64,000 nt of DNA from Patescibacteria group bacterium (GTDB taxonomy: Bacteria; Patescibacteriota; Patescibacteriia; UBA10025; JBIOWE01). Below are positions 18,003-41,156 of this stretch, piece after piece. The notes under the pieces were generated by a model. That model saw only the letters and a program-made list of their open reading frames with translations, searched no databases and was not told where the DNA came from. The position numbers were made by a program, and so were the translations under genes. Position 1 is the stretch's first letter. Every line of letters begins with the position of its first letter. Location: NCBI GenBank assembly GCA_044868145.1, contig JBIOWE010000006.1, forward strand, positions 151,707 to 215,706, given 5' to 3'.

Positions 18003-18004
18003 CT

Positions 18005-18238: not shown

Positions 18239-18243
18239 CCGTA

Positions 18244-18803: not shown

Positions 18804-18811
18804 AAAGAAGT

Positions 18812-19063
18812 ATGGAAGCCGAGGTTGTGGATATATTCGCTTCGTTTACGAAAGAAGGGCCAAGGCCTCAATTGATACGGCATAAGGGGCATAGTTATCG
18901 TATTAACCGCGTGAATTTGCATTATACGGCCAGGGAAGGGGGCAGGGTGGTCCATTATTTCGCGTGTTCCGACGATGCCAATTATTTCCAGTTGCGATTC
19001 GATCCGGTGGAATTACGCTGGCAATTGATGCAAATCGAGGATTACACGGAGCCAACTTCATGA
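18812..19063 (+). CDS. Hypothetical 83-aa protein, translationally coupled (ATGA) to dinB
   Basis: Its stop overlaps the dinB ATG at 19060. No recognisable motif. Confidence 0.45.
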   Translation: MEAEVVDIFASFTKEGPRPQLIRHKGHSYRINRVNLHYTAREGGRVVHYFACSDDANYFQLRFDPVELRWQLMQIEDYTEPTS

Positions 19064-24027: not shown

Positions 24028-24056
24028 TTGATTTTTTGGAGCTTTTGGTTGATAAT
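24028..24056 (+). promoter_or_regulatory. Promoter TTGATT-17-GATAAT, 5 nt before the ATG
   Basis: Read directly. Confidence 0.45.
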
Positions 24057-24061
24057 GAGAA

Positions 24062-24856
24062 ATGGAAATGAAACATTCCTCGCCGAAACCAGTCAGAATT
24101 CTCAAACGGAACGTCTTACCGCACGAAATCGCAAACCAGTATCTCTATCATGAGTTTCTGAAAATTTTTTGGGACGTGAAAGATAAATCTTTCCGGCGGA
24201 AAATAAAGCAGTCACTCTTTCGGATGCGCAAACGTGATGGGAAACATACGTACTGGCTACTTGTGGCCGGAATAGGGGAGGGCTGGCGCGTGAAGTGGGT
24301 GTATCGCTTGTTGACGAACCCTGGTTACGTTTGGAACCTGGAGGAACGAAAGATTAGTGATTTAACAATGACCGGATTTAATCCCCAGATTGTTGACCGG
24401 ATCATTATGCGTAGTGGTCGAAATTTTTATCGATTCGCCGAGTACTATCATAAGCACCGGGTATTTTTCAAAAAATATATGCCCAATCTCAAATCACAGC
24501 CGGAGCGTGACAATCAGCCGGTGCTGATTTTTTACGACCATAAAGAGGGGACTATGCGATTATTTGATGGTATGCGCAGAACCGTACTTGCTGCCATAGC
24601 AAACAAAAAAACGATCAAGGCCTATGTCGGATACCCTCTTCGAAAAGGCAAAGCCATGGTGAATCTTGATAAAATTCAGTATCTTCGACTGCTTTTTCTT
24701 GACGCTCGAAAAGATAGGGAAACATATCGTTCGTTCGTGCATATCGGTAGGGAAATGGTTCGGCAATCTCAAAATGCTGCTCAAGCGTTTCGAAACAGTA
24801 TTAAGCCATGGACTCACAGCCGTGAAAGAAATTTTATTTTGGACATTTTGAAGTAG
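24062..24856 (+). CDS. Hypothetical basic protein (264 aa); C-terminal half may have a ParB/Srx-like fold
   Basis: The LIFYDHKEGTMRLFDGMRRTVLAAI pattern resembles the ParB/sulfiredoxin DG(H)HR core. Weak. Confidence 0.4.
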   Translation: MEMKHSSPKPVRILKRNVLPHEIANQYLYHEFLKIFWDVKDKSFRRKIKQSLFRMRKRDGKHTYWLLVAGIGEGWRVKWVYRLLTNPGYVWNLEERKISDLTMTGFNPQIVDRIIMRSGRNFYRFAEYYHKHRVFFKKYMPNLKSQPERDNQPVLIFYDHKEGTMRLFDGMRRTVLAAIANKKTIKAYVGYPLRKGKAMVNLDKIQYLRLLFLDARKDRETYRSFVHIGREMVRQSQNAAQAFRNSIKPWTHSRERNFILDILK

Positions 24857-24857
24857 T

Positions 24858-25181
24858 ATGAAAAAAATTCTTTGGGTCCTCATCAATTGTAATACCGTTA
24901 AAGAAGCCGACAAAATCGGTACAGCACTTTTAAAGAGGCGGCTTAGTGCATGCTATGATATTGTGCCTCGCTTGAAAACTGCGTATTTCTGGCCGCCAAA
25001 GTCTGGGAAGATCGCAAGCGCAAAAGGGGCTATCCTTATTGCAGAAACGCTACCTGGCTATTTTCAGAAAATATATAAAGTGGCAAAAGGGTTGCACAGC
25101 GATAAGATGCCATTTGTTGGGTCACTTGTTATTGAAGTGCGGAATGAGTATTACCAGTGGGTGAGGGGAGAAGTTCACTAG
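24858..25181 (+). CDS. cutA: CutA divalent-cation tolerance protein
   Basis: 107 aa. RRLSACYDIVP...LIAET...HSDKMPF...EYYQWV matches the CutA1 pattern. Confidence 0.65.
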   Translation: MKKILWVLINCNTVKEADKIGTALLKRRLSACYDIVPRLKTAYFWPPKSGKIASAKGAILIAETLPGYFQKIYKVAKGLHSDKMPFVGSLVIEVRNEYYQWVRGEVH

Positions 25182-25320
25182 TAGCCTATTCGCATAGGTG
25201 ACAAATTGATTTATCACCGGGTTGGTACCTACCAAGAAACGACTTTGACTTGTTTTTTTGCAGTGCTCAATGTTCTCTAGTATACTGTATCAGCGAGTTT
25301 ATCAGTGACATATATTACAT

Positions 25321-26106
25321 ATGAAGAAATCAATCATATTCATTATTGTTGGTCTTGTGGTAGTGGTTATTGTAGTGCTCGTGGTCATCAATAAGCCTGG
25401 TTATCAAAGCAGCAACACCGTAAATACCATTAACACAAATACCGCATCGGGCACCAGTACACAAGCGACCAATCCCGCGCAAACATTCAGATTCAGTGAT
25501 CCAAAGAAAAGCGCGCACTACGAAAGCAACACGCCGGCACACGGCTCGATTCTTCCAGCGCCGCCGGTGAACGTCGTGCTTGATTTCAACTTTGACCTAG
25601 CGACAGTCTCAACGATTTCGATCACGAAGGATGGAAAAGAGTATAGCACTGGCTCGACGACTATTGATGCGAACAAGCTCGCCATGCGCCGCACGATGGA
25701 TATGAACGCACCGGACGGACTCTATACCGTCAGCTACAACGCGTGTTGGCCGGACGGCAGTTGCCACGACGGCAATTTCCAATTCGCCATCGATCAAACA
25801 CGGGCAGCAAGCTTCGAAGACATGCGCGGGCAAACCGCAGTCACGATACACATGAAGGCCATTGCGTTTGAGCCGCGGAATATTCGCATCAGCAAAGGTA
25901 CCACTGTTACCTGGGTGAACGATGAATCGGACATCCATTACGTCAACACCGACGCCCACCCGAGTCACACGTATTACACGGCACAGAATTCTAACGCGCT
26001 AAGCAAGGGTGACACGTTCGCATTGACTTTTGATAAGCCCGGCGCGTATCCCTCTCATTGCAGCGCACACGCGGACCGAATGACAGCGATGATTTTAGTA
26101 GAATAA
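25321..26106 (+). CDS. Secreted fusion of a CopC-like copper-binding domain and a cupredoxin (blue-copper) domain
   Basis: Signal peptide, low-complexity linker, CopC signature (H..SNTPAHGS ... YTVSYNA..DG.CHDGNFQFAI), then a type-1 Cu site (H...C..H....M: HCSAHADRM). Confidence 0.65.
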   Translation: MKKSIIFIIVGLVVVVIVVLVVINKPGYQSSNTVNTINTNTASGTSTQATNPAQTFRFSDPKKSAHYESNTPAHGSILPAPPVNVVLDFNFDLATVSTISITKDGKEYSTGSTTIDANKLAMRRTMDMNAPDGLYTVSYNACWPDGSCHDGNFQFAIDQTRAASFEDMRGQTAVTIHMKAIAFEPRNIRISKGTTVTWVNDESDIHYVNTDAHPSHTYYTAQNSNALSKGDTFALTFDKPGAYPSHCSAHADRMTAMILVE

Positions 26107-26116
26107 TCAAGAAATC

Positions 26117-26148
26117 AAAAAGGCCCTTCAACAAAGAGGAGCCTTTTT
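26117..26148. terminator. Bidirectional terminator between convergent genes
   Basis: AAAAAGGC...GCCTTTTT with an imperfect inner stem. Confidence 0.45.
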
Positions 26149-26160
26149 GGTAAACGCGAT

Positions 26161-26448
26161 TTAGAGAATCGAGTCTTTTGCCTGCTTGGCAACGCGGAAC
26201 TTGACGACCGTCTTCGCGGGAATCTGGATCGTCGCGCCTGTTGCCGGGTTGCGACCTTGTCGCGCCTCTCGGTGCTTCTTTACAAGCTTCCCGACGCCCG
26301 GAAGGGTGAATTCACCCCTGCTCTTAACTTCGCTGTACGCTGTTTGCGCCAGCATCTCCATAAAATTGCCGACATCCTTCTTGGACATGCCGGTTTTTTC
26401 GGCCATGTGACCAAGGAGTTCGGACTTGCTCATGCCTTTGCCTGCCAT
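26161..26448 (-). CDS. hup: HU/IHF-family DNA-binding protein
   Basis: 95 aa. ELLGHMAEKTGMSKKD ... GRNPATG arm motif. Confidence 0.9.
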   Translation of the reverse strand: MAGKGMSKSELLGHMAEKTGMSKKDVGNFMEMLAQTAYSEVKSRGEFTLPGVGKLVKKHREARQGRNPATGATIQIPAKTVVKFRVAKQAKDSIL

Positions 26449-26648
26449 ACGCGTTTAGACCTTTCGCTTAATTGTTAATAAATCCACAAGGTAGTATAGC
26501 AGGAACGCAGGGAAACGCCAATGTTTACAAGGGTTTTTTCTAATACGAGGCTTCGGACAGTTTCCCCGCGGTTCCTTTTTTGGCTAACGAAAGGTCTTTT
26601 TACGCAAGGTAAAACCATAGTTCTTGTGGTATACTAGAAGCAATCTCC

Positions 26649-27794
26649 ATGCGAGTATTAACACACCGTTTGCGTTATCTCTACGCGCTGTCTATCCTTA
26701 TCGGCACCATAGTTGGCGTCGGTTTTTTTGGCTTGCCCTACGCCGCTCTGCAAGCCGGCTACGGCACACTGCTTTTGTATTTTGTTTTATTGGGCGCCGT
26801 TGTTCTTTTGACGCATTTGTTCTACGCGGAATTTTCTTTGCATACAAAGGGTCACCACCGGCTGGTCGGATACGCGAGTTTGTACTTAGGTCGGTTCGGA
26901 AAATGGCTGACGTTTCACGTTAAGATGTTTGGCATCTTCGGTGCGCTGCTTGCCTATTTGTTGATCGGCGGCAGATTCCTTGCTAGTTTGTTTGGCGGTT
27001 CAGTTATTTTATATACGTTTCTCTTTTTTCTGGCCGGCGCCTGGCTTGTGTGGCGTGGCTCACGATCTATTGGACCGGTTGAATTGGTCCTCTTGGGTAT
27101 CTTCGTTCTCCTGGTCGTCATAGTCTTCATTGCCGGCATTCCTTCGCTCCGTTTAGAGAACATCACAGGATTCAGCTCCGCGGCATTCTTCTTGCCCTAT
27201 GGGATCGTGTTGTTTTCCCTGTGGGGTATTGACGCGATTCCCGAATTACGCGATCTTTTATGGCACGACGCGAAGCACATGCGCCGTGCGATTACCTACG
27301 GCGTTTTGATCTCGATATGTATTTACATTGTGTTTACTTTTTTTGTTCTCGGCATCTCGGGCACGACAACAACAAAGGACGCTTTGTCCGGTTTAGCGCC
27401 GCATTTCGGGCAGACCATTATGTTCTTCGGATATCTCCTTGGAGTGATTACCTCGTTTACTTCCTTTATTACATTCGGTCTTGCGTTAAGGAAGACTTTT
27501 ACGTATGATTTGCGTTTTCCAAAATTTATCGCATGGACCATAACATGTTTTGTGCCGCTCTTCCTTTTCGTCATCGGCATTCAAAATTTCTTAACAGTCA
27601 TAAGTGTAACCGGCGCCCTGTTCATCGGTATTGAAGCGATTATCGTGTTTCTTATTTATATTCGGTTTAAAACGGTGCAAAAGCGTACGACCCTGCCACG
27701 ACTTCGCTTTTTGAAAGTTGTTTCATTTGCCATGGTCGTTGTCCTGCTCACCGGCGTATGGTTTGAAATTCTCGCATTATTGGGAGCGGTATGA
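26649..27794 (+). CDS. Amino-acid permease (Trp/Tyr-permease-like, about 11 TM)
   Basis: Polytopic. N-terminal G.G.FGLPYA motif. Extended -10 TGgTATACT upstream. Confidence 0.55.
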   Translation: MRVLTHRLRYLYALSILIGTIVGVGFFGLPYAALQAGYGTLLLYFVLLGAVVLLTHLFYAEFSLHTKGHHRLVGYASLYLGRFGKWLTFHVKMFGIFGALLAYLLIGGRFLASLFGGSVILYTFLFFLAGAWLVWRGSRSIGPVELVLLGIFVLLVVIVFIAGIPSLRLENITGFSSAAFFLPYGIVLFSLWGIDAIPELRDLLWHDAKHMRRAITYGVLISICIYIVFTFFVLGISGTTTTKDALSGLAPHFGQTIMFFGYLLGVITSFTSFITFGLALRKTFTYDLRFPKFIAWTITCFVPLFLFVIGIQNFLTVISVTGALFIGIEAIIVFLIYIRFKTVQKRTTLPRLRFLKVVSFAMVVVLLTGVWFEILALLGAV

Positions 27795-29218
27795 AAACAT
27801 CTCCTACAATACGTGTACGCTTTGCGCCTTCGCCAACGGGGTTTCTCCATATTGGCGGGCTTCGGACAGCTTTGTATAACTGGCTTTTTGCCAGGAAACA
27901 CAAGGGGGAATTTATCCTGCGTATTGAAGATACGGATCGTGAACGCATTGTCCCTGGAGCGCTTGAGAATATTCAAGAAGCGCTTAGGTGGTACGGTTTG
28001 AAGTGGAATGAAGGACCGGTGATGCAATCCGAACGGTTGGAAAAATACAAAGCCCATGCCGCGACGCTCGTAAAACAGGAAGGTGCATATGATTGTTTTT
28101 GTACGAAAGAACGGCTGGAGCGGGTGCGCAAAGCGCAGGAATTGGCAAAGCAGCCGCCGCGTTATGATGGCCATTGTCGTAACCTTTCAAAGGACGAAGT
28201 CACGAAAAGATTGCAAGCTGGCGAGCCGCACGTCATTCGCTTGAAAATCCCGGACGAGGGATCCACCGTTTTCCAAGATATTATTCACGGCAGCGTGTCG
28301 TTCGAAAATAAAAATCTCGACGACCAGGTGTTGCTGAAGTCTGACGGCTTTCCGACGTACCACCTCGCCAACGTGGTAGACGATCACGATATGGGAATCT
28401 CGCACGTGATTCGCGGGGACGAGTGGCTGCCTTCCACACCCAAGCACGTGTTGCTGTATGAAGCGTTCGGTTGGCGACTGCCGGAATTCGCGCACCTGCC
28501 CATTATTCTCGGCAAGGACCGGTCCAAGCTTTCGAAGCGCCATGGCGCAAAGCCGGCCTTGGAGTACCGCGACGCGGGCTATCTGCCCCAGGCGGTATTG
28601 AATTTTATTTCGCTGCTTGGCTGGAATCCGGGTACGGAGCAGGAAATCTTCCATGCAGGCGAACTCATTGAAGCGTTCGATCTTGCCAAGGTGAACAAAG
28701 CTGGCGCGGTGTTCGATTCCGATAAACTCGATTGGATGAACGGCATGTACATTCGAACAATGAAACCGAAAGAGCTTGCCAAAGCGCTTATGCCATTCGT
28801 TAAAGATCTCCACGCCACAGAGAAAGATCTGGAACGCATCGCACCGCTCTTTCAGGAAAGATTAAAAACGCTTGCGGAATTTAAGAACTACGCGATATTC
28901 TTTTTTCTAGACTCGCTCGATTATGATCCAAAGCTACTCATTCCCAAGAAAGGCACGCAACAGGAAACAGTGCGCGTTCTTTCCGACGTCAAAGAATTTT
29001 TGCCCACGCTGCCGAAGTCCGTATTCCGTCACAATCAACTTAAACAAAAGTTTGAACATTTTGTTCAGGAAAAGCAGTATACGAACATGGCCGTGCTCTG
29101 GCCGCTGCGGGTGGCGCTTACGGGTTTGGCCGCGTCGCCCGGCGTGTTTGAAGTTATGGAAGCGCTCGGCCCGGAGCGATCCATGAAAAGGGTAGGGGAG
29201 GCGATCCAAAAGCTGTAG
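27791..29218 (+). CDS. gltX: Glutamyl-tRNA synthetase
   Basis: RFAPSPTGFLHIGG (HIGH) and KLSKR (KMSKS) motifs. Confidence 0.9.
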   Translation: MKTSPTIRVRFAPSPTGFLHIGGLRTALYNWLFARKHKGEFILRIEDTDRERIVPGALENIQEALRWYGLKWNEGPVMQSERLEKYKAHAATLVKQEGAYDCFCTKERLERVRKAQELAKQPPRYDGHCRNLSKDEVTKRLQAGEPHVIRLKIPDEGSTVFQDIIHGSVSFENKNLDDQVLLKSDGFPTYHLANVVDDHDMGISHVIRGDEWLPSTPKHVLLYEAFGWRLPEFAHLPIILGKDRSKLSKRHGAKPALEYRDAGYLPQAVLNFISLLGWNPGTEQEIFHAGELIEAFDLAKVNKAGAVFDSDKLDWMNGMYIRTMKPKELAKALMPFVKDLHATEKDLERIAPLFQERLKTLAEFKNYAIFFFLDSLDYDPKLLIPKKGTQQETVRVLSDVKEFLPTLPKSVFRHNQLKQKFEHFVQEKQYTNMAVLWPLRVALTGLAASPGVFEVMEALGPERSMKRVGEAIQKL

Positions 29219-29221
29219 AAC

Positions 29222-29250
29222 TTGTCGTAGGCCCTGAATTGTGTTATAAT
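29222..29250 (+). promoter_or_regulatory. Promoter TTGTCG-17-TATAAT, 9 nt before the ATG at 29260
   Basis: Read directly. Confidence 0.5.
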
Positions 29251-29259
29251 GGCCAAACG

Positions 29260-30537
29260 ATGCTAAGAAAAGCGCAAAACAAAAGCACTGGCATTGTAAA
29301 CAAAAACAAAACCCGAACTATCGCATTCGCAGCTGGGGCATGCTTGCTTGTTGCCTCATTTTTTGTTTTGCCCAGGTTAATTTCGTTCGCGCAAGAGAGC
29401 ACGCCGGACAGCCAATCCATCATTTCTCTTGACCAGCAAATTCAGGATAAACAGCAACAGCTGGAGGACATTCAGAAACGCATTACGACCTATCAAGAAA
29501 GTGTCAAGATAAAGCAGCAAGAAGCGTTATCGCTGCAAAACCAGCTTTCAATGCTCGACGACCAAATTGCGACGACGCAGGCGGACATCGAACGCATCAA
29601 CATTGAGCTTCAGCAAATAGAATTGGAAATTAACAAGCTCGTGTTGCAAATCGCGGAGAAGGAGAATGAACTCGAAGCCAAACGGGAATCGCTCTCTCGG
29701 TACATCCAAGTATTATACCAATACGATCAAAAGACAGTTATTGAACTGTTCGTTGCGCATGATTCGTTCTCGGATTTTTATAATCAAATCCAGTACTCGG
29801 AGCAGTTGCAACAGAACGTGAAAGACGGTTTGGACGAGGTAAAATCGCTGAAAGATGAGTTGGAAACCAAGCGCCAGGACCAGGACGCGAAAAAGAACGA
29901 ACTCGACGACTTGCATAGTTCGCTGGAAACGACTGCCGTAACGCTTGGTCAACAGAAAACATACAAGGAAGATTTGCTTGGACAAACAAAAACGAACGAG
30001 ACAAAATTCGCGAGCTTGCTTGATCAGGCGAATCTTGAGCAGCAGCAAGCGTCGGCAGATATCTCGAATTTGGAGCGCCAGGCCCGCAATGAGCTTGAAG
30101 GGGAGGGGATAGACCTCAATCAGGAAATTGCCACGCTCATGTGGCCCGTGTCGCCCACCAAGGGTATTTCCGCGTACTTCCACGATCCGACCTATATTTT
30201 TCGCAGATACTTCGAGCACCCAGCCATCGACATCCCCGCGTCGCAAGGCACGCCTATTCGCGCTGCGGCGAGCGGCTACGTCGCCCGCGCCAAAGACGCG
30301 GGGTTCGGCTACAGCTACATTATGCTTGTGCACAACGAAGAACTTTCCACCGTGTATGGCCACGTGAGTCGCATTGACGTGCGCGAGGATTCCTATGTTG
30401 TCCGCGGACAGCAAATCGGCCTCGTTGGCGGCACTCCCGGCACCCCAGGCGCCGGTAACCTCACCACCGGCCCGCACTTGCACTTCGAAGTGCGTTCCAA
30501 TGGCATTCCAGTGAATCCGCTGGACTACCTGCCATAA
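29260..30537 (+). CDS. M23 peptidase with N-terminal coiled coil (EnvC-like)
   Basis: Long Q/E-rich coiled coil, then HxxxD and HLHFE M23 motifs. The track start is an upstream TTG. Confidence 0.8.
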   Translation: MLRKAQNKSTGIVNKNKTRTIAFAAGACLLVASFFVLPRLISFAQESTPDSQSIISLDQQIQDKQQQLEDIQKRITTYQESVKIKQQEALSLQNQLSMLDDQIATTQADIERINIELQQIELEINKLVLQIAEKENELEAKRESLSRYIQVLYQYDQKTVIELFVAHDSFSDFYNQIQYSEQLQQNVKDGLDEVKSLKDELETKRQDQDAKKNELDDLHSSLETTAVTLGQQKTYKEDLLGQTKTNETKFASLLDQANLEQQQASADISNLERQARNELEGEGIDLNQEIATLMWPVSPTKGISAYFHDPTYIFRRYFEHPAIDIPASQGTPIRAAASGYVARAKDAGFGYSYIMLVHNEELSTVYGHVSRIDVREDSYVVRGQQIGLVGGTPGTPGAGNLTTGPHLHFEVRSNGIPVNPLDYLP

Positions 30538-30560
30538 GACTTTCAATCTTGTCTCAATTC

Positions 30561-30590
30561 AAGAAGCGGCCAAAAAGCCGCTTCTTTGGT
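30561..30590 (+). terminator. Rho-independent terminator (10-bp stem AAGAAGCGGC / GCCGCTTCTT)
   Basis: Read directly. Confidence 0.6.
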
Positions 30591-30702
30591 TACACTTTTC
30601 GATCAGCCGTGCCCTTTTTTCCTTATACCCCACAGGGTAAAATCAATTTTCACAATCATTCTTTATCGAGTGACGCACGAGGCAGGGGACAGCTTGGGCT
30701 AG

Positions 30703-30885
30703 TTAGCGTAACACTTTTATCGCGAGTTGATTTTTCAAAGCCTCTACTTTATTCTCAAGACTCGATAAACCAATCGCTAAGTTTTGGAGGCCAGCGTATA
30801 AATTGTACTTCTCGGGTTCAGTTTCCGGGTTTCCAAAAAGACGCAGGTTCTCATTAAATTGCTTAGCTGCATTTATCAAATGCAT
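30703..30885 (-). CDS. Small helical hypothetical protein (60 aa)
   Basis: Strong SD (AAAGGAGGTG, 6 nt before the ATG). Starts 20 nt after the upstream gene. Confidence 0.5.
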   Translation of the reverse strand: MHLINAAKQFNENLRLFGNPETEPEKYNLYAGLQNLAIGLSSLENKVEALKNQLAIKVLR

Positions 30886-30905
30886 ATGTGCACCTCCTTT
30901 CTATT

Positions 30906-31733
30906 CTACTGAAGTTTTTCTTTAACCGTTAAATAGTGAAAAATTACCTTTGGTTTGTTAAGCGCGCTCGGATCGATTAAGCCGGCGCCAAAACGTGCTT
31001 TATCGTTGAAGCTCCCGTTGACCGAAAAATTCCAAACAATTTCTTGACCACCGTTCAAGTCAAATAATTTTCCGTTTTGGTCGTAAAATTTTATGTTTAA
31101 TGTCACCGATCGTGTACTGCCATTTTCGATTTTAGCGTTTACATCAATAGTTGCCTTCACTGGCTGATCGACTGGGAAGCTTTCTGTTAAATAGCATCTC
31201 AGTTCGCTAGTCACTTTACAATTCTCGGGAAATTCAGGATTCCAATTTGGGTTGTCGACATCAAACGATTTAAGGCTGATTGCACGTCTATCACCATCGC
31301 CGATGATGATTTGGAAAGCATTTTCTACGATGATGTAAAAATCCGATGCTTCTGTTAGCGGCGTGAATTTGACTTCAATTACTGCGTGTTCAAAAATCGC
31401 TTTTGTTGAGAGATAATACGCGAACCCTTTTTTTGTATATCCTAGTGACAAAACACCTTCTTTGTTGAACCTAATGTCTCCAATTTTATCAAAACCTTCG
31501 AAATTTGTTGTTTCAATGCTATCAAGGGCACTTTCGCTCAATACTTTCTGTCTCCCTACCTCTTGTTCCGCAATCTGTTTTTTTTCTGCGGGAGTTGAAA
31601 AAAAGAAGTTGTAAATTTGTGTAACTTCAGCGCTAAATTCAACGCTAATAAGAGCAAACGCAAAAACTACCGACCCTAATTTTACAACTTTTTTTCGCCA
31701 CCATTTACTTGATTTTTTTGCAGCATCCTTCAT
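30906..31733 (-). CDS. Hypothetical membrane-anchored/secreted protein (275 aa)
   Basis: N-terminal transmembrane helix. Preceded by a promoter and a roughly 100-nt structured leader. Confidence 0.5.
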   Translation of the reverse strand: MKDAAKKSSKWWRKKVVKLGSVVFAFALISVEFSAEVTQIYNFFFSTPAEKKQIAEQEVGRQKVLSESALDSIETTNFEGFDKIGDIRFNKEGVLSLGYTKKGFAYYLSTKAIFEHAVIEVKFTPLTEASDFYIIVENAFQIIIGDGDRRAISLKSFDVDNPNWNPEFPENCKVTSELRCYLTESFPVDQPVKATIDVNAKIENGSTRSVTLNIKFYDQNGKLFDLNGGQEIVWNFSVNGSFNDKARFGAGLIDPSALNKPKVIFHYLTVKEKLQ

Positions 31734-31840
31734 TTTGGACTATTTTTTTCATAAAAATATAGGCGAATTCGGCTTTCAAAGAAGTGTAAAGCCGGGGCTC
31801 ACCATTCCCCCTGACACAATATGTTGTACTCCCACAAGGT

Positions 31841-31868
31841 ATTATACTACTAAATGTGGGAAAGTCAA
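31841..31868 (-). promoter_or_regulatory. Promoter TTGACT-16-TATAAT (minus strand) with a roughly 100-nt hairpin-containing 5' UTR
   Basis: Read on the minus strand. UTR hairpins are GGGGaatggtgaGCCCC and GGCTTTacacttctttgAAAGCC. Confidence 0.5.
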
Positions 31869-31882
31869 TGAATTTTTTGCTT

Positions 31883-32815
31883 TTATTTCAATGGATGATA
31901 CTTCTTATGCGTCTTTTCTGCGTATTTGTCAGAGGCGTGGACGTAGCGCGTGGTTGTGTCTAGCGATTCGTGGCCGAGGAGTATCTGTATAGCCGCAGGA
32001 TTGGCGCCTTGTTCGGCCATGTAGGTCGCAAAGCCGTGGCGGAGGGAGTGGGCGCTCGTTGGGACATTGATACGCAAGCGATCCCTGTATTTTTTTATTT
32101 TCATTTGAATATAGTTTGTTGAGATGCGCGAAGTCGTTTTTTTGATATTGCTGCCACGGTAGGGGATAAAGAGGGCGAGGGCACTGTCTTTGCGAGCTCG
32201 CAAGTATTGTTCAACATGATGGTGTGCGCGATCCGTGAGATACACGAATCGCTGTTTTTTGCCTTTGCCTAAAATGAATATTTTGCCGGTCTGGTCTATT
32301 TGGTTTCTATTCAAGCTCACAAGCTCGGAAATGCGCATCCCGGTTGAAAACAGAACCTCGAGTATAGCGCGATTACGAAGCGCTACCACTTTTACTTTTT
32401 TTTCGAATTCAGTAGGGGATTCAATCAAGCGTACTAAGTCAGGGAATTCTGCCACTTGCGGGTGCTTCTTGATCGTTTTGGTCAATTTCACCATCTCTGG
32501 CGAGACAGATGTCGGGTAGTCATTATCAATCAGGTACTTGAGAAAGGACCGAAGGCTCGAAAGCATCCGGTTCACGGAAAATCCGCCTAGACGCTTCTTG
32601 CCTGCCTCGTCCTCGGCCGTTTTACGGTCCCGGGAGGCAAGGTATGCCTTGTACTGTTCTATATCGCGTTTCTTGAGCTTTGGGAAGGGGAGATTCGCCT
32701 CTTTAACCAAATACGTCTCAAACACTTTTAAATCGCGCTCGTAGTTGTATATGGTCTCCTCAGAGTAGTTATTTGTTTGGAGATTGAGGAGAAAGTCATC
32801 TAAATGGGGTAACAT
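31883..32815 (-). CDS. Tyrosine site-specific recombinase (XerC/XerD-like)
   Basis: C-terminal R...HSLRHGFAT...LLGH...TTRYVH catalytic signature. The track start (32980) runs through the upstream palindromes; the internal M at 32815 (MLPHLDDFL) is likelier. Confidence 0.75.
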   Translation of the reverse strand: MLPHLDDFLLNLQTNNYSEETIYNYERDLKVFETYLVKEANLPFPKLKKRDIEQYKAYLASRDRKTAEDEAGKKRLGGFSVNRMLSSLRSFLKYLIDNDYPTSVSPEMVKLTKTIKKHPQVAEFPDLVRLIESPTEFEKKVKVVALRNRAILEVLFSTGMRISELVSLNRNQIDQTGKIFILGKGKKQRFVYLTDRAHHHVEQYLRARKDSALALFIPYRGSNIKKTTSRISTNYIQMKIKKYRDRLRINVPTSAHSLRHGFATYMAEQGANPAAIQILLGHESLDTTTRYVHASDKYAEKTHKKYHPLK

Positions 32816-32930
32816 AGGAGTATAGCTCTTTATGTCTTTATTGGTGAGTGTAAGGGATATTATACACAGTAACAACTTTATTATATATAGGGCTTTATTT
32901 GTTGTAAAGCCCTGTTCCCTAGCTCTTTGA

Positions 32931-32986
32931 GGGTAGCCTCGATCCTCAGATCGAGGCGGTGCGGATCTGAGGATCCGCACCTACCC
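32931..32986. repeat. Composite palindromic element (CCTCGATC-ctca-GATCGAGG, GGTGCGGATC-tgag-GATCCGCACC, flanked by GGGTAG/CTACCC), related to 12295-12354
   Basis: Exact reverse-complement arms. Shares the GCGGATCT..GATCCGC core and GGTAG/CTACC ends. Confidence 0.55.
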
Positions 32987-33002
32987 GAATGGTGGTGATT
33001 GC

Positions 33003-33437
33003 CTAAAGCGCTTTCAGGACGAATAAGAGGATCGCAATATACATTATTTGTGTCGTTAGGCCCAGCGTCCACCCAACGCGCACCTGAATCGCGGCGTGGA
33101 AGGCTAGGAAGCGCCCGAGTCCCCTTCTGACAGCGGGAAAGATGCCGAAGATGGATATAACGTCCGGTAGGATGGCGAACGTAACGCCGATGAGCAGGTT
33201 TACCCAGTGCTCGGGGTACGAATAAAGCAATGCAAAGAATACGGCAATGCTTGAAAGCAGGTCCGGCCACATGTTCAGGAATTCCTTTGGCTCGGCTTTT
33301 TTCGGCGCGTCAAAGTCCTTATGCGGTACCAGGTCAAGCAAAAAGTGCGACGCTAGAGAAACGACGGCGACCAACGCAGGGTTTCCGATTTTGACACCGG
33401 CTACGGCGCCGGTCAACATGTGGGCAAGTAAAATCAT
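33003..33437 (-). CDS. Small polytopic membrane protein, possibly DUF457/YdjM-like metal-dependent hydrolase; paralog 1
   Basis: Four predicted helices and an HF(L/I)LD(L/F)(V/I)PH motif. 40-45% identical to the next gene. Confidence 0.45.
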   Translation of the reverse strand: MILLAHMLTGAVAGVKIGNPALVAVVSLASHFLLDLVPHKDFDAPKKAEPKEFLNMWPDLLSSIAVFFALLYSYPEHWVNLLIGVTFAILPDVISIFGIFPAVRRGLGRFLAFHAAIQVRVGWTLGLTTQIMYIAILLFVLKAL

Positions 33438-33524
33438 TCCAAAATTAAAGATTAAAAATTAAATATAAAAAATAAAGTAAAGGAATTTTCCGCATTTTTT
33501 ATTTTTGATCTTTTATTTTTACTT

Positions 33525-33956
33525 TTATATTATGAGCCACCAAAGGATTATAAGAATAAAAAACACTTGCACCGCAATACCCGGCACGATATGGATTTCA
33601 TGCTGTACGCGTTCGTGCAAATTGTAAAACCATTTGAACGTGGTTTTTGCCAGTTTGGTATTATCGAGCAGCGATAATAAGTCCGGCAGGATCGCAGAGA
33701 ATACGCCGAGCGTGATGAGTTTCCATTGATTCGCAAAGACGAGGAGAAAAACTGCATAGATCAATGTTGATGCTATGAGATCTGGCCAGATTCGAAAGAA
33801 TTCATTAAAATGGATTTTACGCGGCCTGGCAAAATTCCAATGCGGGATAAAGTCCAATATAAAATGAGACAAAAAGCCCGTCAAGGCAATGGCTATGGGG
33901 CTTTCGACTTTTACACCGATCACGGCGCCAGCCAGTACATGCGAGAGTAACATCAT
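33525..33956 (-). CDS. Paralog 2 of the small membrane protein
   Basis: Same architecture. Shares an identical 30-nt AT-rich leader with paralog 1. Confidence 0.45.
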   Translation of the reverse strand: MMLLSHVLAGAVIGVKVESPIAIALTGFLSHFILDFIPHWNFARPRKIHFNEFFRIWPDLIASTLIYAVFLLVFANQWKLITLGVFSAILPDLLSLLDNTKLAKTTFKWFYNLHERVQHEIHIVPGIAVQVFFILIILWWLII

Positions 33957-34039
33957 GTCAGTAAATTAAAGATTAAAAATTAAATATAAAAATTTGGAAG
34001 AATCACTTCAATATTTTTTATTTTTACCTTTTTATATAG

Positions 34040-34888
34040 TCACTTATAAAATACTTTACCGGGGATTCTTACGTCTATGTATTGTAACTTTGACCGCTGA
34101 TCGGCCAGGGTCGTATTAAGCGCCTGTATAAGCGTTTCCATTTGCGCCTGCAGACTTTCGCGTCGATCAAAGTAGATAGTGAATCCTTCGTCAGACTTGA
34201 TGTGCAGTTCAGAGCTGCCGCCTGCCAGAAGCGTGTTCATGAGGGCGTGCACCGTTGTTTTGTTCTTGAGATCGTCTCGGAGCGTAAGGATAAAGGATAT
34301 TGTATCTTCTGATAAAATGCGTTTGCCAACCGCGACCTCACCGCTCCCCTCTTGCTGGACGATGGTAGCGTCGCTGGCGACGTTCTCCGTTTGTTCTTGA
34401 CGCACAACAATGCCGTTCACGTCAACAGAGTAATACAATTCCCCGGTTTTCCACAGCAGCGCGGGCGGTTGCTCTTTGATAGTAATGATAATCGCGTTTG
34501 GTAATTTCTTCTTGATGGAAAGATCCTCGATACGATATTTCTTTTCGATGTTTTCTTTCAGCCATGATTTACTGAACAGGAATATGTTGCTTTGCGGATA
34601 GATTGCGGCGCGGCGTTGGTGCAATTGCCAATCCACAAGATTCATTTTTACGAATTCTGTATTGATGATTCCGTTTGTTTGTACTGCAACTGTCGTAATG
34701 GCGAATACCGGCGAATAAAATAATAGGTAGACCAGTCCGAACATGAGCAGCAAAGCAAGAAGGACAAAAAAGGAAAAGCGTTCAACGACAAACTGCTGCC
34801 ATGTTCTTTTCTGAAACAGCGGGTTGCGATAGAGAGGCTCTTTTGCGTCTACGATATTGAGTTGTTTACGTTTAAAATTCCAACGCAT
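34040..34888 (-). CDS. FtsQ/DivIB-like cell division protein
   Basis: Short cytoplasmic tail, single transmembrane helix, then a POTRA-like periplasmic domain. Confidence 0.55.
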   Translation of the reverse strand: MRWNFKRKQLNIVDAKEPLYRNPLFQKRTWQQFVVERFSFFVLLALLLMFGLVYLLFYSPVFAITTVAVQTNGIINTEFVKMNLVDWQLHQRRAAIYPQSNIFLFSKSWLKENIEKKYRIEDLSIKKKLPNAIIITIKEQPPALLWKTGELYYSVDVNGIVVRQEQTENVASDATIVQQEGSGEVAVGKRILSEDTISFILTLRDDLKNKTTVHALMNTLLAGGSSELHIKSDEGFTIYFDRRESLQAQMETLIQALNTTLADQRSKLQYIDVRIPGKVFYK

Positions 34889-34925
34889 GTAAGCTACAGT
34901 AAAAATGTGAGGTATAGCCCTTTAC

Positions 34926-35057
34926 TTGACATGTTTTATAGCGTATGTTATGTTTGTTTTGAAAGAAATCCTCTGCACTTTCTTGCTTGTGCTCCGATTC
35001 CAGGATGAGGTTTCTTTTCACAGTCCCCGCGACCATTATATGGGAGCGGGGTTTTTA
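34926..35057 (+). ncRNA. Candidate sRNA unit A (promoter TTGACA-17-TATGTT to CCCCGC hairpin terminator)
   Basis: Promoter hexamers at 34926-34954. Terminator CCCCGCGACC..GCGGGG plus T5 at 35025-35057. Confidence 0.4.
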
Positions 35058-35077
35058 TTGGTAGTTATGGAAAATGG

Positions 35078-35234
35078 TTGACGTCTTTTTCGCAGTCTGG
35101 TACATTGAGTTTGTCCGGAGCTTACCACTCCGCGTCATGCTCTTTCTCAATTCAGGTACTCTCATTTATTCTTTTTATCAAGTCCCTTTGATAGACCCCG
35201 CGACCATTTTACCATTATGGAAGCGGGGTTTTTA
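35078..35234 (+). ncRNA. Candidate sRNA unit B (TTGACG-17-TACATT to terminator)
   Basis: Promoter at 35078-35106. Terminator at 35196-35234. Homologous to unit C in its 5' block and terminator. Confidence 0.4.
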
Positions 35235-35273
35235 TTGCTAGTTTGGAAGTCATGAAATTCTGCATGAAAATGT

Positions 35274-35460
35274 TTGACACCTTTTTTGCAGTTTGTTACC
35301 TTTAGTTTGCCCGGAGCTTAGGCTCTAGACGGCATGTTCTTTCTAAGAGGATCCATTAGAGGATTCTTTATCTGCGAGATCCATGATTATCTGGGTCTTC
35401 GCCTAGTTTGCCAATATCCCCGCAACCATATCTACCATCGTGGAGGCGGGGATTTTTTAG
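35274..35460 (+). ncRNA. Candidate sRNA unit C (TTGACA-18-TACCTT to terminator)
   Basis: Promoter at 35274-35303. Terminator at 35419-35460. Confidence 0.4.
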
Positions 35461-35479
35461 TTATCCACAATGAGCACTT

Positions 35480-35620
35480 TGACAAATTTTTCGTTTGATT
35501 TATAGTATATTCAGCTAGAAGTTAGAGAAGCTCTAAGTCTTTTCTACAGCGTTAGCCGTAAACAACCAAAACGGTTGCCGCGAACACCCTCATTCTTTAA
35601 AGAGTGAGGGTATTTTTTAT
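35480..35620 (+). ncRNA. Candidate sRNA unit D (TTGACA-16-TATAGT to ACCCTCA hairpin terminator)
   Basis: Promoter at 35480-35507. Terminator at 35586-35620. No ATG in the transcript. Confidence 0.4.
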
Positions 35621-35750
35621 CCCCACACCAACTTTAGGAGACTTCTACCCACCTTCAGGTGAGGGTTTCTGACCTTTAGGTCAGGAAGACCGGGCTAAAG
35701 CCCTGAACACCCTCGGCTCAAGCCGGGTAGAAAAGAAGAAAAGTCGGGAT

Positions 35751-36875
35751 TTATTTTGTAATGATCCTAGGAAGGGAAGGATTGATACGGGAAACGATTT
35801 CGTAGTGAATTGTTTTTGCTTGATGAGCGAGTTCATTCGCGGTCATTTCTTCCGGGCCATCGTGACCAAGCAATACTACTTTGTCCCCTACTCTGACTTT
35901 GGGGATGTGTGTAACGTCAACCATCGTGAGGTTCATGCAGATGCGCCCGCGTACCGGGGCGCGCTTGCCCTGGACCAGCACGTCGGCATTGTTCGACAGA
36001 CTCCTATCGTACCCTTCATAGTAGCCGACTGGTAATACGGCGATCCTGGCAGGTCGTTTTGCCCGATATATGCGACCATAGCCAACGGTTGTGCCTCGTG
36101 ACACGGTTTTGACTTGAATAATGCGGGTATACCACGAAAGCCCTGGTTTCAGTGATATGCGGTTTTTGAAGCCGTTCTGAACTGACGATAATCCGTATAA
36201 AGAAATGCCGAGCCGCACCATGCTCAAGCGTGTATGTGGGTTCATAATTGTGGATGCGCTGCATGCGGCATGGCGCATCGGTATGTGCATTCCTTGCTGT
36301 TCAAGGTGCTTTATGGTTTGTTGGAATGCGGTAAGTTGCTTATTGGTAAATGCTTGGTTGATATTTTCGGAGTCAGCAAAATGGGTAAAAATCCCTTCCA
36401 GCGTTAAGCCCGGGAGTTTTTGTATCGCTTGGACGAATCGAACTGTGCCATTCGGTAGTACACCAAGCCGTGTTGTGCCGGTATCTATTTTGACATGGAT
36501 CATCGCGCGTTTGTTCAGACGGCGGCTCATGGCCGAAAGGTAGTGCGCCTGCTCAAGCGTGTACATGGGGAATCGGACTTTTGCCGTAATACCTTGGCGA
36601 ACCTGGTCGTTGTCCTGGTTGAAGTAGCTTAATACCATGATAGGCGCCTTGAGCCGCGCATGAATAAGGTTCAACGCCTCGTCAAGGTTCGCGACGCCGA
36701 GCCAGTCTGCACCGGCGCTTTTGAAAACCTTGGCGCATTCAACCATGCCATGCCCGTAAGCATTGGATTTGACGACGGCCATGATGCTTGTTCTATGTCC
36801 AACCAGTTTTCGAAACTGTTTGACATTATGAACGAAGCTTGAACGTGAAATTTCAAGCCACGTCAGTCCTTCCAT
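35751..36875 (-). CDS. alr: Alanine racemase
   Basis: AVVKSNAYGHG PLP-binding motif. About 370 aa. Confidence 0.9.
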   Translation of the reverse strand: MEGLTWLEISRSSFVHNVKQFRKLVGHRTSIMAVVKSNAYGHGMVECAKVFKSAGADWLGVANLDEALNLIHARLKAPIMVLSYFNQDNDQVRQGITAKVRFPMYTLEQAHYLSAMSRRLNKRAMIHVKIDTGTTRLGVLPNGTVRFVQAIQKLPGLTLEGIFTHFADSENINQAFTNKQLTAFQQTIKHLEQQGMHIPMRHAACSASTIMNPHTRLSMVRLGISLYGLSSVQNGFKNRISLKPGLSWYTRIIQVKTVSRGTTVGYGRIYRAKRPARIAVLPVGYYEGYDRSLSNNADVLVQGKRAPVRGRICMNLTMVDVTHIPKVRVGDKVVLLGHDGPEEMTANELAHQAKTIHYEIVSRINPSLPRIITK

Positions 36876-37165
36876 AATGTAAAATGTAAAAATAAAAAAT
36901 CAAAATGACAGATTAAAATTTATAAATATTCTTCTTTTTGAACCGCCCTTACGAAGCAATCGTCAAGAACTGCGGAGCGAAGAGGAGCGATCCCCCACCT
37001 CGAGCTTTGTCGATAGGTGGGGGATTTGATCCCGCTGTGTGAGGCCGAACTTGTCGAGGCCGAGTTCGGGTCAAAAGCGACGATGAGCCTGCAGTTCTCG
37101 ATTGCGGAGTCGGGCGGCGACTTTTTTCCGTCGCTTTTTTGGTCGTTCAAAAAAGCGACGAAACA

Positions 37166-38440: not shown

Positions 38441-38995
38441 TTAGAGACCGAGCGTTGGTGCGATGGTTTGCAACGCCGTGAGCACGTGCTGAATGTGTTC
38501 ATCCAAGGAAAGTTTCAGCTCCGCGGCACCTTCTCGTATTTCTTCTCGGTTCACTTGTTTGGCGAAACTTTTTTCCTTCATTTTTTTCTTTACGGCTTCT
38601 ACGTCCACTTCGGCAAGCTTTTTGTTCGGCCGGACTAATGCTACAGCGATAATAAATCCGGAAAGTTCATCGACCGAGAAAATCGCCTTATCCATGGTGT
38701 TTTCTCGCGGTGTACCAGTGTGCGGCGCGTGCGCCAGAACCGCGTGCAATAGCGCCTCTGGCCATCCATGCGTTCGCAGAATTTCTACACCTTTGAATGG
38801 ATGGTCTTTGAGATCCGGATATTGTTCGTAGTCAAAATCGTGAATAAGACCCACAATACCCCAGGTTTCTTCATCCTTCCCAAAGTGCTTCGCGTAATGC
38901 CGCATGGCTGCTTCAACGGCAAGCGCATGCTTCACGAGATTTGGATTTTTTGTGTGCTCCGTCAGCAAGGCGTATGCCGTTTCGCGCGTGATCAT
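38441..38995 (-). CDS. HD-domain (HDIG) phosphohydrolase
   Basis: H...HD...D metal-binding pattern (HALAVE...IHDFD). Confidence 0.7.
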   Translation of the reverse strand: MITRETAYALLTEHTKNPNLVKHALAVEAAMRHYAKHFGKDEETWGIVGLIHDFDYEQYPDLKDHPFKGVEILRTHGWPEALLHAVLAHAPHTGTPRENTMDKAIFSVDELSGFIIAVALVRPNKKLAEVDVEAVKKKMKEKSFAKQVNREEIREGAAELKLSLDEHIQHVLTALQTIAPTLGL

Positions 38996-40509
38996 TCCTG
39001 ATGCTTCGGTTTTAAGGTGGGGAAAAGAATCACTTCTTTGATATTGTGGGAGTTGGTCAGCAATGCGGTCAGTCGATCAATGCCCATGCCGAATCCGGCA
39101 GCAGGCGGCATCCCATACGAAAGCGCCTCGAGAAAATCCTCGTCCATACGCTCGGTCTCTTCGTCACCAGCCTTGTGAAGTTTTTCCTGCTCGAGAAAAC
39201 GTTCGCGTTGGTCTATCGGGTCGTTTAGTTCGGAGAACGCGTTCACGAGTTCGGTTTTGCCGACCAGCAATTGGAATCGCGCCGCGAGTTTTGGATCGTC
39301 CATCTTTCGCTTTGCGAGCGGCGAGAGTTCGATTGGATAATCAACGATAAAGGTAGGCTGGATAATAAAGGGCCGGATAAGCTCTTTGTAGATTTCGTCC
39401 AGAATTTTGGCATACCCGAACTTTTTTTCAATCGTCAATCCGCGTTTCCTCGCCTCGCTTGCCAGCGATTCCGTGGTCGAGTGATGGTCTATATCTATTT
39501 TTGCGAATTCTTTGAATGCGTCGTGGAAGGTCATTCGCTTATATGGAGCAGAGAAATCGATTGATATACCTTCGTATTCGACTTTCAGCGAGCCGGTACT
39601 TTTGTGCACCACGTCCTCGAGCAGTCGTTCGGTAAGCGACATGAGTTTTTCGTAGTCCATATACGCCGCGTAAAACTCTATTTGCGTGAATTCTGGATTG
39701 TGACTATGGTCAATTCCCTCGTTGCGGAAACATCGGCCAATTTCGTACACGCGTTCGTAACCCCCGACAAGCAGGCGTTTCAGGTACAGTTCCGGTGCGA
39801 CCCGCAGGAACAGCGGAATATTTAACGCTTCGTGATGCGTTTTGAATGGCCGGGCAAGGGCGCCGCCGGGGATCGGCTGGAGAATGGGCGTTTCGACCTC
39901 CAGAAAGGATTCCCCATCCAAGAACTCGCGAATCGCTTTTATGACCATGCCCCGTTTTCGGAATATCGCCCGTACCTCGGGATTTGCAATGAGATCAAGG
40001 TATCGCTGGCGATATCGGATCTCCACATCAGATAAGCCGTGCCATTTTTCCGGGAGTGGAGCCAGTGCTTTCGCGATCAAGCGATATTGCTCAACAAGCA
40101 GTGTTTGTTCGCCTTTTTTTGTGCGAAATAGTTTTCCGGTCGCTTCGAGGAAATCGCCGATATCGAGCTGGTCCATCGAGGCTGCGTACGCAGTCTCTCC
40201 AACCGTATCTTTTTTGAGGTAGATTTGTATCCTGTCCGTCCCATCTTCTATATGCATGAACGTCGAGCCCCCATGGAGGCGAATCGTTCGGATGCGTCCT
40301 ACGATGGTGAGCAACCCCTTGCCTTCGAGATCGTTAAATTTCAATTTCGCTTCATGGATTGTGTGCGTTCGGTTGGTTCGCGCTGGATACGGCTCTCTCC
40401 CCTTTTCGCGGATGGCGCGGAGTTTTTTTAAACGAATCTCATGTTGATCAGACGTTTTCATGTACTGTATCATACCAAAATTCGCTCTTGAGGGCAAACA
40501 AAAAACCAC
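38992..40509 (-). CDS. lysS: Lysyl-tRNA synthetase (class II)
   Basis: OB anticodon-binding domain plus class II motifs (FRNEG, GGAGFGIDRL). Confidence 0.9.
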   Translation of the reverse strand: MVFCLPSRANFGMIQYMKTSDQHEIRLKKLRAIREKGREPYPARTNRTHTIHEAKLKFNDLEGKGLLTIVGRIRTIRLHGGSTFMHIEDGTDRIQIYLKKDTVGETAYAASMDQLDIGDFLEATGKLFRTKKGEQTLLVEQYRLIAKALAPLPEKWHGLSDVEIRYRQRYLDLIANPEVRAIFRKRGMVIKAIREFLDGESFLEVETPILQPIPGGALARPFKTHHEALNIPLFLRVAPELYLKRLLVGGYERVYEIGRCFRNEGIDHSHNPEFTQIEFYAAYMDYEKLMSLTERLLEDVVHKSTGSLKVEYEGISIDFSAPYKRMTFHDAFKEFAKIDIDHHSTTESLASEARKRGLTIEKKFGYAKILDEIYKELIRPFIIQPTFIVDYPIELSPLAKRKMDDPKLAARFQLLVGKTELVNAFSELNDPIDQRERFLEQEKLHKAGDEETERMDEDFLEALSYGMPPAAGFGMGIDRLTALLTNSHNIKEVILFPTLKPKHQE

Positions 40510-40542
40510 GTTGAAATGCGTGGTTTTCTCTTGTACTTATGG

Positions 40543-41010
40543 TTAATGAATTGTAACGATTTCGAATTTTTTGGTGCCGCTTGGTACAGTGATCAGAACG
40601 GTATCGCCTGGCTTTTTTCCAAGAAAGGCATGGCCAATCGGCGATTCGTTAGATATTTTTCCGATGCTGGGGTCGGCTTCGTTCGAACCGACGATCAGGT
40701 ATTCATGTGTCTTTTTTTCGTCGCGTACTGTAATTTTTGATCCAATTCTGACGGTCCCCGATTTTCGTTTCGTATCCTTGATCACTGTCGCGTGCTTGAG
40801 CAGCGTTTCAATTTCAAGAATTCTGCCTTCAATAAAGGCTTGTTCATTTTTCGCCTCGACATATTCAGCGTTTTCAGAAAGGTCGCCCAGTTCTTTCGCC
40901 TCTTGGATGCGTTCGGCGATTTGGCGACGTTTTACGGTCTTGAGTTCTTCAAGCTCCGCTTGTAATTTTTCCAATCCATGTTGGGTAAGGAATGTGTTTT
41001 GTTCGCTCAT
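40543..41010 (-). CDS. greA: Transcription elongation factor GreA
   Basis: N-terminal coiled coil with acidic tip, C-terminal FKBP-like domain, 155 aa. Confidence 0.9.
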   Translation of the reverse strand: MSEQNTFLTQHGLEKLQAELEELKTVKRRQIAERIQEAKELGDLSENAEYVEAKNEQAFIEGRILEIETLLKHATVIKDTKRKSGTVRIGSKITVRDEKKTHEYLIVGSNEADPSIGKISNESPIGHAFLGKKPGDTVLITVPSGTKKFEIVTIH

Positions 41011-41156
41011 AGAGTTTAATCTTGAAAAAAATTCAACCCCCGGTCGTGGTCAGAGAGGCCCCCGGAGTTTTTTGCGCATTTCATTTTCCCTTGCTCTATA
41101 GGCAGGATACGCTGCTTTTTCTTTCTCGTCAAGTCCTTCAGTGATCCTGTCTGACC

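Follow-up and report, generated by a model that had tools for sequence, protein, structure and literature searches.

The window analyzed here is a 64-kb stretch of the genome of an uncultivated Patescibacteria group bacterium, and our subject is an 862-bp island (34889-35750) that lies in it between the minus-strand genes ftsQ and alr. With moderate confidence, we read this island as a row of four plus-strand genes for small RNAs, each transcribed independently and ended by an intrinsic terminator. Three of them (units A, B, and C) would be siblings, and the fourth (unit D) would be unrelated to the others.

Four promoter-to-terminator units in a noncoding island

The island contained no credible gene, solely short and unconserved open reading frames (ORFs). 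An ORF map of the 64 kb showed that the window is otherwise compact and that the island is its only large noncoding stretch, because the other apparent gaps contain ORFs. The gap at 18002-18964 is filled by an xseB-like ORF and an AbrB-like ORF, and the gap at 60.7-64 kb is taken up by one long ORF that leaves the window at its end. The ORF map thus bore out what a sequence-only reading of this DNA had stated, that a noncoding island of about 860 bp is unusual in so compact a window. An independent Logan assembly was identical to the window over 24040-37085, island included, and the island is therefore not a mis-join or an assembly artifact.

The four units follow one another on the plus strand (Table 1). 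Each has a TTGAC(A/G) -35 box, a spacer of 16 to 17 nt, and a TAnnnT -10 box. The terminator hairpins, with energies of -16 to -18 kcal/mol, lie 91 to 144 nt past the predicted starts and are followed by 5 to 6 T residues. The -10 hexamers of units A, B, and C are weak, for which the TGn directly preceding each of them would compensate, and this extended -10 has been kept in all three units though their spacers have diverged. Unit D has the best promoter of the region and its sole terminator called by the tool in the promoter/terminator scan. All four predicted RNAs folded better than their shuffled controls, with z-scores of -3.9 (A), -3.6 (B), -3.2 (C), and -5.7 (D). When read on the minus strand, the island hairpins have A runs before them and no T runs after them, and they are therefore one-directional terminators; hairpin C, in addition, has a U-G pair on the plus strand only.

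Table 1. Features of the island and its flanking genes, in window coordinates
Feature	Coordinates	Strand	Description
ftsQ	34040-34888	minus	Flanking gene; POTRA_1 and FtsQ_DivIB_C domains
Candidate ftsQ promoter	34963-34935	minus	Read from sequence; TTCAAA 34963-58, 17-nt spacer, TATAAA 34940-35
Unit A	34926-35056	plus	Predicted RNA of ~95 nt
Unit A promoter	34926-34954	plus	TTGACA 34926-31, 17-nt spacer, TGn 34946-47, TATGTT 34949-54; predicted start ~34961
Unit A CUUUCU	34978-83	plus	Predicted unpaired, probability 0.83
Unit A terminator	35025-35056	plus	Hairpin 35025-35051, -18.0 kcal/mol; T run 35052-56
Unit B	35078-35233	plus	Predicted RNA of ~120 nt
Unit B promoter	35078-35106	plus	TTGACG 35078-83, 17-nt spacer, TGn 35098-99, TACATT 35101-06; predicted start ~35113
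Unit B 5' hairpin	35115-35132	plus	
Unit B motif	35136-47	plus	CAUGCUCUUUCU; predicted unpaired, probability 0.86
Unit B terminator	35196-35233	plus	Hairpin 35196-35228, -16.9 kcal/mol; T run 35229-33
Unit C	35274-35458	plus	Predicted RNA of ~150 nt
Unit C promoter	35274-35302	plus	TTGACA 35274-79, 17-nt spacer, TGn 35294-95, TACCTT 35297-302; predicted start ~35309
Unit C 5' hairpin	35313-26	plus	
Unit C motif	35333-44	plus	CAUGUUCUUUCU; predicted unpaired, probability 0.92
Unit C terminator	35417-35458	plus	Hairpin 35417-35452, -18.2 kcal/mol; T run 35453-58
Unit D	35479-35618	plus	Predicted RNA of ~105 nt
Unit D promoter	35479-35506	plus	TTGACA 35479-84, 16-nt spacer, TATAGT 35501-06, 11/12 to consensus; predicted start ~35513
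Unit D terminator	35586-35618	plus	ACCCTCATTCTTTAAAGAGTGAGGGT 35586-35611, -16.0 kcal/mol; T run 35613-18
Element E	35619-35750	undecided	Multi-hairpin element; abuts alr stop codon
Element E closing stem	35643-35732		TTCTACCC/GGGTAGAA
alr	35751-36875	minus	Flanking gene, alanine racemase; Ala_racemase_N and Ala_racemase_C domains

One set of criteria, applied to both strands of the whole window, gave 40 promoter-like and 40 terminator-like sites. Promoter-to-terminator pairs 40 to 250 nt apart numbered 10, and 5 of these, corresponding to the four units, fell in the island, which represents 1.3% of the window. The remaining five pairs had weaker hairpins throughout and were located in or beside coding sequence, one of them across an intergenic gap. 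The island also held three of the eight exact TTGACA-N16-18-TAnnnT sites of the window and four of its seven hairpins at -16 kcal/mol or better, all plus-strand only. Genuine genes of the window have the same type of promoter shortly before their start codons (e.g., at 18340, 20425, 23110, and 60737), which gives the promoter consensus meaning in this organism. No comparable promoter-terminator cluster was seen at the syntenic loci of relatives. The four-unit architecture is real and statistically unusual, and the scan of both strands agreed with the earlier description of four plus-strand promoter-to-terminator units that are antisense to ftsQ and alr.

Three sibling units and an unrelated fourth

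Paralogy was tested by comparing pairwise alignment z-scores against shuffles. The scores were 9.2 for A-B, 14.6 for B-C, and 5.2 for A-C, all of them significant, and the alignments identify units A, B, and C as paralogs. The three also scored 101 to 138 bits against a covariance model, but the model was built from the same three copies and these scores are circular. Unit D gave alignment z-scores of only -0.2 to 2.2 with A to C and no match to their covariance model at E values up to 10. By these measures it is not detectably related to them, in keeping with the earlier remark that its terminator differs from theirs. The sequence-only reading had described a tandem array of four; its diverged repeat shared by A to C stood up, but the island is not one fourfold repeat, with unit D unrelated and a fifth structured element (element E) present.

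Conservation among A, B, and C is unevenly distributed. The promoters, the 5' ends, an unpaired CUUUCU, and the terminators have been kept, and the middles have diverged. The promoters of B and C match at 78% of positions, the segments from +1 to +45 at 67%, the middles at 39%, and the terminators with their tails at 73%; a stretch of 84% identity spans -43 to +12. For the first 60 nucleotides transcribed from this pair, about 80% identity had been put forward, which was too high; we measured 65 to 67% over the first 45 to 60 nt. Such a mosaic fits constraint on the promoter, the 5' end, and the terminator rather than uniform decay. Units B and C have in common a 5' stem-loop built on CCGGAGC and the motif CAUGYUCUUUCU. 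The CUUUCU within it is common to A, B, and C and is predicted to be unpaired with a probability of 0.83 to 0.92, a range that covers three paralogs only. Unit D contains CUUUUCU, but here the motif is predicted to be paired (unpaired probability of 0.09).

Tandem Repeats Finder reported no array anywhere in the window, the island included. A CRISPR/TIGR guide array was also rejected on the unit periods of 152, 196, and 205 bp and on the presence of a promoter and a terminator in each unit.

Proposed mode of action

If the units are small RNA genes, each would be transcribed from its own sigma-70-type promoter and ended at its own terminator, giving RNAs of about 95, 120, 150, and 105 nt for A to D, respectively. 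The RNAs of siblings A to C, made from extended -10 promoters, would each carry a stem-loop at the 5' end (clear in B and C), CU-rich single-stranded sequence, and the terminator hairpin common to all three. Sibling small RNAs from other systems suggest that this exposed sequence is the likely pairing site, which would bind purine-rich stretches of target mRNAs in trans. What complements the B/C motif is a run of purines with AUG behind it, which resembles a start region.

A second route of action may lie at ftsQ itself. The candidate ftsQ promoter was below what the scan tool called, the final base of its -10 box being A. It stands back-to-back with the unit A promoter and overlaps it, so that ftsQ may also be affected in cis, possibly through competition between the two divergent promoters.

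Searches for homologs

At the gathering threshold, Rfam 15 gave no match anywhere in the window. With E values of up to 10 allowed for 34800-35850, the best matches scored 14 to 20 bits against cutoffs of 45 to 54, with E values of 1.3 to 7, which is noise. The Rfam search proposed in the sequence-only reading thus pointed to no family, including the LhrC, NsiR1, csRNA, PyrR, and VrrA models. No tRNA or transfer-messenger RNA was found, and blastn against phages and plasmids produced no match to the island. The pattern of the shared terminator had six unrelated matches among the GTDB genomes, a collection that does not include the source genome. A relaxed terminator pattern had at least 120 matches in JGI metagenomes, and in the fetched loci the similarity was confined to the hairpin by blastn; in viral contigs there were two matches, to the hairpin pattern alone. 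A blastn search of the island against the loci of relatives and the rest of the window found nothing. With filters off, the A-C covariance model, run on the window and on 87 kb of related loci, found no copy beyond the three from which it was built.

A literature search on small RNAs in Patescibacteria found no paper whose title or abstract concerns such RNAs, and we know of no characterized small RNAs from these bacteria. The candidate RNA family is plausibly new and unlike any catalogued family, and its architecture is of a known type.

An island in place of ddl between alr and ftsQ

The gene order around the island differs from that in relatives. Four related loci, with Alr proteins 49 to 57% identical to that of the window (L003, L005, L006, and L008), have the order lysS-HD-(mgtC)-serS-alr-ddl-ftsQ, co-directional and tightly spaced. 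A fifth (L139; Alr 58% identical) shows alr-ddl followed by a cut ORF of untested identity, and a contig without alr (L004) shows ddl-ftsQ. The order in the window is lysS-HD-serS-alr-island-ftsQ. Across the six sampled relatives, with Alr identities of 49 to 58%, ddl was found between alr and ftsQ wherever both flanks of the slot were readable, and it is this slot that the island occupies. A tblastn search with the Ddl proteins of five relatives, run at word size 2 for three of them and with E values up to 20, detected no ddl remnant in 34800-35800 or the rest of the window. A ddl pseudogene was rejected, as the minus strand of the island has no protein-level similarity to Ddl. There was likewise no tblastn trace in the window of a 72-amino-acid ORF that is found between alr and ddl in some relatives. 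None of the best 120 Ddl matches was on the source contig, and the one candidate examined was an unrelated Gram-negative. FtsQ homologs numbered only five, with identities of 33% or less.

Taken at its broadest, the island would be the first regulatory small RNA system recognized in Patescibacteria (Candidate Phyla Radiation [CPR]). Lineage-specific siblings and a fourth RNA would have replaced ddl in the conserved alr-ddl-ftsQ operon and would control envelope or division genes in trans, through the CU-rich stretch, and in cis at ftsQ, through the overlapping divergent promoters, with possible total loss of the D-Ala-D-Ala ligase. We regard this full version as unlikely.

Comparison with known systems

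Adjacent or multiple paralogous small RNAs are known from OmrA/B, PrrF1/2, Qrr1-5, and the streptococcal csRNAs, in which promoter, seed, and terminator are conserved and the middles are variable. The csRNAs pair with the ribosome-binding site and AUG; similarly, CAUGYUCUUUCU of units B and C is the complement of a purine stretch that leads into AUG. However, no Rfam match connects the island to any of these families.

The LhrC1-5 RNAs of Listeria monocytogenes comprise five copies of 111 to 114 nt with CU-rich motifs and are induced by envelope stress (PMC6794450). They resemble the predicted RNAs of the island in being siblings some 110 nt long, every copy having a promoter and terminator to itself and several copies lying side by side in one intergenic region. 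The CU-rich motifs of LhrC are single stranded and are its pairing sites, and the corresponding stretch is a candidate site here. LhrC is also tied to cell envelope stress, and the island lies in a cell wall and division gene cluster. The differences are considerable. The motif of the island is CUUUCU and that of LhrC is UCCC, and no Rfam family matched at threshold. LhrC targets AG-rich Shine-Dalgarno motifs, which the present genome rarely uses. The candidate copies in the island are far more diverged and are unequal in length.

NsiR1 of Nostoc sp. PCC 7120, located upstream of hetF, consists of 12 copies (7 of them identical) of about 60 nt with a DIF1 promoter motif, and diverged copies can have different targets (PMC9045159). 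It too is made of tandem direct repeats with a promoter and a terminator for each copy, and it adjoins, and is partly antisense to, a neighboring gene connected with cell division. In contrast, the diverged copies in the island number three, are 95 to 150 nt long, and have extended -10 promoters of the sigma-70 type; a fourth, unrelated unit accompanies them, and Rfam gave no match. Because no Rfam model matches and lengths and motifs differ, the island belongs to neither LhrC nor NsiR1.

The type I toxin-antitoxin loci Ibs/Sib and Ldr/Rdl are tandem intergenic units of 150 to 400 bp in which a promoter and a terminator enclose a very short ORF (PMC2887945), and the units of the island are also tandem and intergenic and have these three components. 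They differ in having no hydrophobic transmembrane peptide, no conserved ORF, and no evident antisense partner, and in that stop codons lie outside the terminated transcript.

Weighing the explanations

Several points count against the four units being small RNA genes. Transcription of the units and the noncoding nature of their products are both inferred here from sequence. The -10 hexamers of B and C match the consensus at only 4/6 and 3/6 positions. The mosaic conservation could also stem from gene conversion or recombination between repeated promoter/terminator modules, and there are no true compensatory changes among the three paralogs. Neither blastn nor the covariance model found further copies in the rest of the window, and a lineage sampled only once offers no orthologs, its Alr being alone in its 90% cluster and 58% identical to the closest other Alr. 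No convincing target emerged within the window. RNAduplex against 62 start regions gave long, uninformative duplexes, and the complement of the 12-mer B/C motif occurred 17 times in the window against 10.5 expected, which is at the level of chance. Shine-Dalgarno motifs are rare in this genome, and a missing one is no ground against translation of the short ORFs.

Some of these points would suit an island that is a nonfunctional relic of the rearrangement that removed ddl, for example, one left by duplicated promoter/terminator modules of a lost mobile or foreign segment, maybe transcribed but with no selected function. Its position is exactly at the site of ddl loss, homologs were found nowhere in the collections searched, and the window has no other copies. 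The middles of the units are already scrambled, at 39% identity, and the lineage shows other local changes (a serS-alr gap of 290 bp, a locus that has lost mgtC and nifU, and duplication of a 144-amino-acid gene). We nevertheless consider a relic rather unlikely, since four promoters and four terminators are intact and near consensus amid diverged intervening sequence, with TGn kept in A to C. Junk of 860 bp would be unusual because the genome is otherwise tightly packed, and the similarity to phages, plasmids, and viral contigs extends to the bare hairpin at most. It is quite improbable, in our estimate, that the units act only in cis and that their RNAs are incidental. They would then throttle or uncouple ftsQ by polymerase collision, by antisense pairing with alr-ftsQ read-through mRNA, and by occlusion of the ftsQ promoter by that of unit A. 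The terminators look efficient and would confine antisense transcription to short segments outside alr, as if the units were built to yield discrete RNAs; interference would require neither the conserved 5' hairpin nor the conserved unpaired motif, and occlusion needs one promoter only. Action in cis does gain from the co-directional, tightly spaced alr, ddl, and ftsQ of relatives, which suggest one operon, and from the antisense orientation of every unit to the alr-to-ftsQ direction. Read-through from alr would be possible because the minus-strand hairpins have no T runs, and the candidate ftsQ promoter overlaps that of unit A back-to-back.

Small proteins, perhaps peptides like type I toxins, are a very improbable product of the units. 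Units A, B, and C have short ORFs of 19 (MRFLF...), 34 (MLFLN...), and 54 (MFFLR...) amino acids with a common ATG-NNN-TTT-CTN (M-x-F-L) start, and type I toxin loci often occur as tandem duplicates in intergenic regions (PMC2887945). The missing Shine-Dalgarno motif is no argument against peptides, because the genome hardly uses such motifs. However, the peptides of B and C are wholly divergent after residue 4. In A and B the reading frames close only beyond the terminator T runs (stop codons at 35062-64 and 35239-41, respectively), which would leave the terminated RNAs with no stop codon. Unit D keeps the CU-rich motif and lacks an ATG. No transmembrane-like stretch is present in the peptides, which include prolines and charged residues, and Pfam and NCBIfam had no match for any small ORF of the island. 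The minus strand of the island has a single promoter-like site (35414, in unit C) and no terminator, and therefore no antitoxin-type partner is visible. The sequence-only reading had argued against peptides from a reading frame not conserved relative to the hairpin. This applies to unit C, which alone differs, and not to A and B, which traverse the hairpin in the same frame with loops that differ by 6 nt in length. Its conclusion in favor of noncoding RNAs is still the best reading, on the stop codon positions, the divergence of the peptides, the absence of an ATG in D, and the lack of a protein family, and the small ORFs are unlikely as products.

Type I toxin-antitoxin loci were rejected on the absence of a conserved hydrophobic ORF and of an antisense RNA gene for each unit. 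Leaderless mRNAs were dropped, as the predicted starts have no ATG, and so was a CsrB-like decoy, as GGA motifs are few and outside loops.

Element E and other features of the window

Element E folded at -50.3 kcal/mol (z-score, -3.1) on the plus strand and at -56.5 kcal/mol (z-score, -3.7) on the minus strand, where it would be the 3' untranslated region of alr. We found no promoter of its own and no Rfam match, and relatives have merely a simple hairpin after alr. The two arm sequences of the unit D terminator hairpin (35586-35611), GAACACCCTC and GTGAGGGT, are found again in element E at 35657-35666 and 35705-35714, with the order swapped, which would allow alternative D/E pairings on either strand. 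Element E could be a structure of the alr 3' end or a barrier between unit D and alr.

The sequence CCCCACACCA has three exact copies in the window, at 18244-18253 (plus), 18330-18339 (minus), and 35621-35630 (plus), the third of which opens element E. With up to one mismatch there were six matches against 1.9 expected, and the extended form is CCCCACACCAnnTTTAG. The other two copies form a 15-bp inverted repeat with a 66-nt spacer, between the xseB-like ORF and the TTGACA promoter at 18340. CCCCACACCA could be a protein-binding site. That consensus promoter (TTGACA-17-TATACT) opens a segment (18340-18590) in which 4.5 copies of AGTATATACTA (18359-18407) come next and lead to a 55-amino-acid AbrB/SpoVT-like ORF (18424-18590), a layout that looks like an autoregulated operator.

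Within ftsQ, the plus-strand sequence CATGTTCTTTTCT (34802-34815) resembles the unit C motif CATGTTCTTTCT. The ftsQ mRNA could pair with RNA C over 10 nt (34802-34811, codons 26 to 30), a match that is not statistically significant. Shine-Dalgarno motifs are nearly absent from the start regions of about 60 ORFs of the window and are clear solely at 13370 and 23161. Many genes of the window have a -10-like box 10 to 15 nt ahead of the ATG, suggesting very short leaders.

The gap between serS and alr (36876-37165) is 290 bp here versus 0 to 5 bp in most sampled relatives. It contains GC-rich hairpins, such as CCCCCACCT...AGGTGGGGG, and the Logan contig stops within it, at window position 37085. 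Two genes present in the loci of some relatives (L005 and L008 were compared), mgtC, located between serS and the HD gene, and nifU, which follows ftsQ, are missing from this locus (window 38441-41156). The gene greA, at 40546-41010 on the minus strand, is hidden beneath a longer, spurious plus-strand ORF (40571-41101). An ORF of 143/144 amino acids, membrane-like and with no Pfam match, is duplicated here (33003-33437 and 33525-33956) and single copy in relatives, and repeats of the AAATTAAAGATTA type lie upstream of both copies (33441-33531 and 33963-33994).

Biological implications

For CPR bacteria, whose genomes are tiny, 860 bp of noncoding DNA is costly, and to our knowledge RNA-based regulation in this radiation is essentially uncharted. 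The locus marks the displacement of ddl, a core peptidoglycan gene, and bears on the erosion or rewiring of cell wall synthesis; were the island a relic only, it would still record the breakage of a conserved operon. If the units are expressed, their defined promoters, terminators, and candidate seed would provide an entry point to posttranscriptional control in an episymbiotic lineage.

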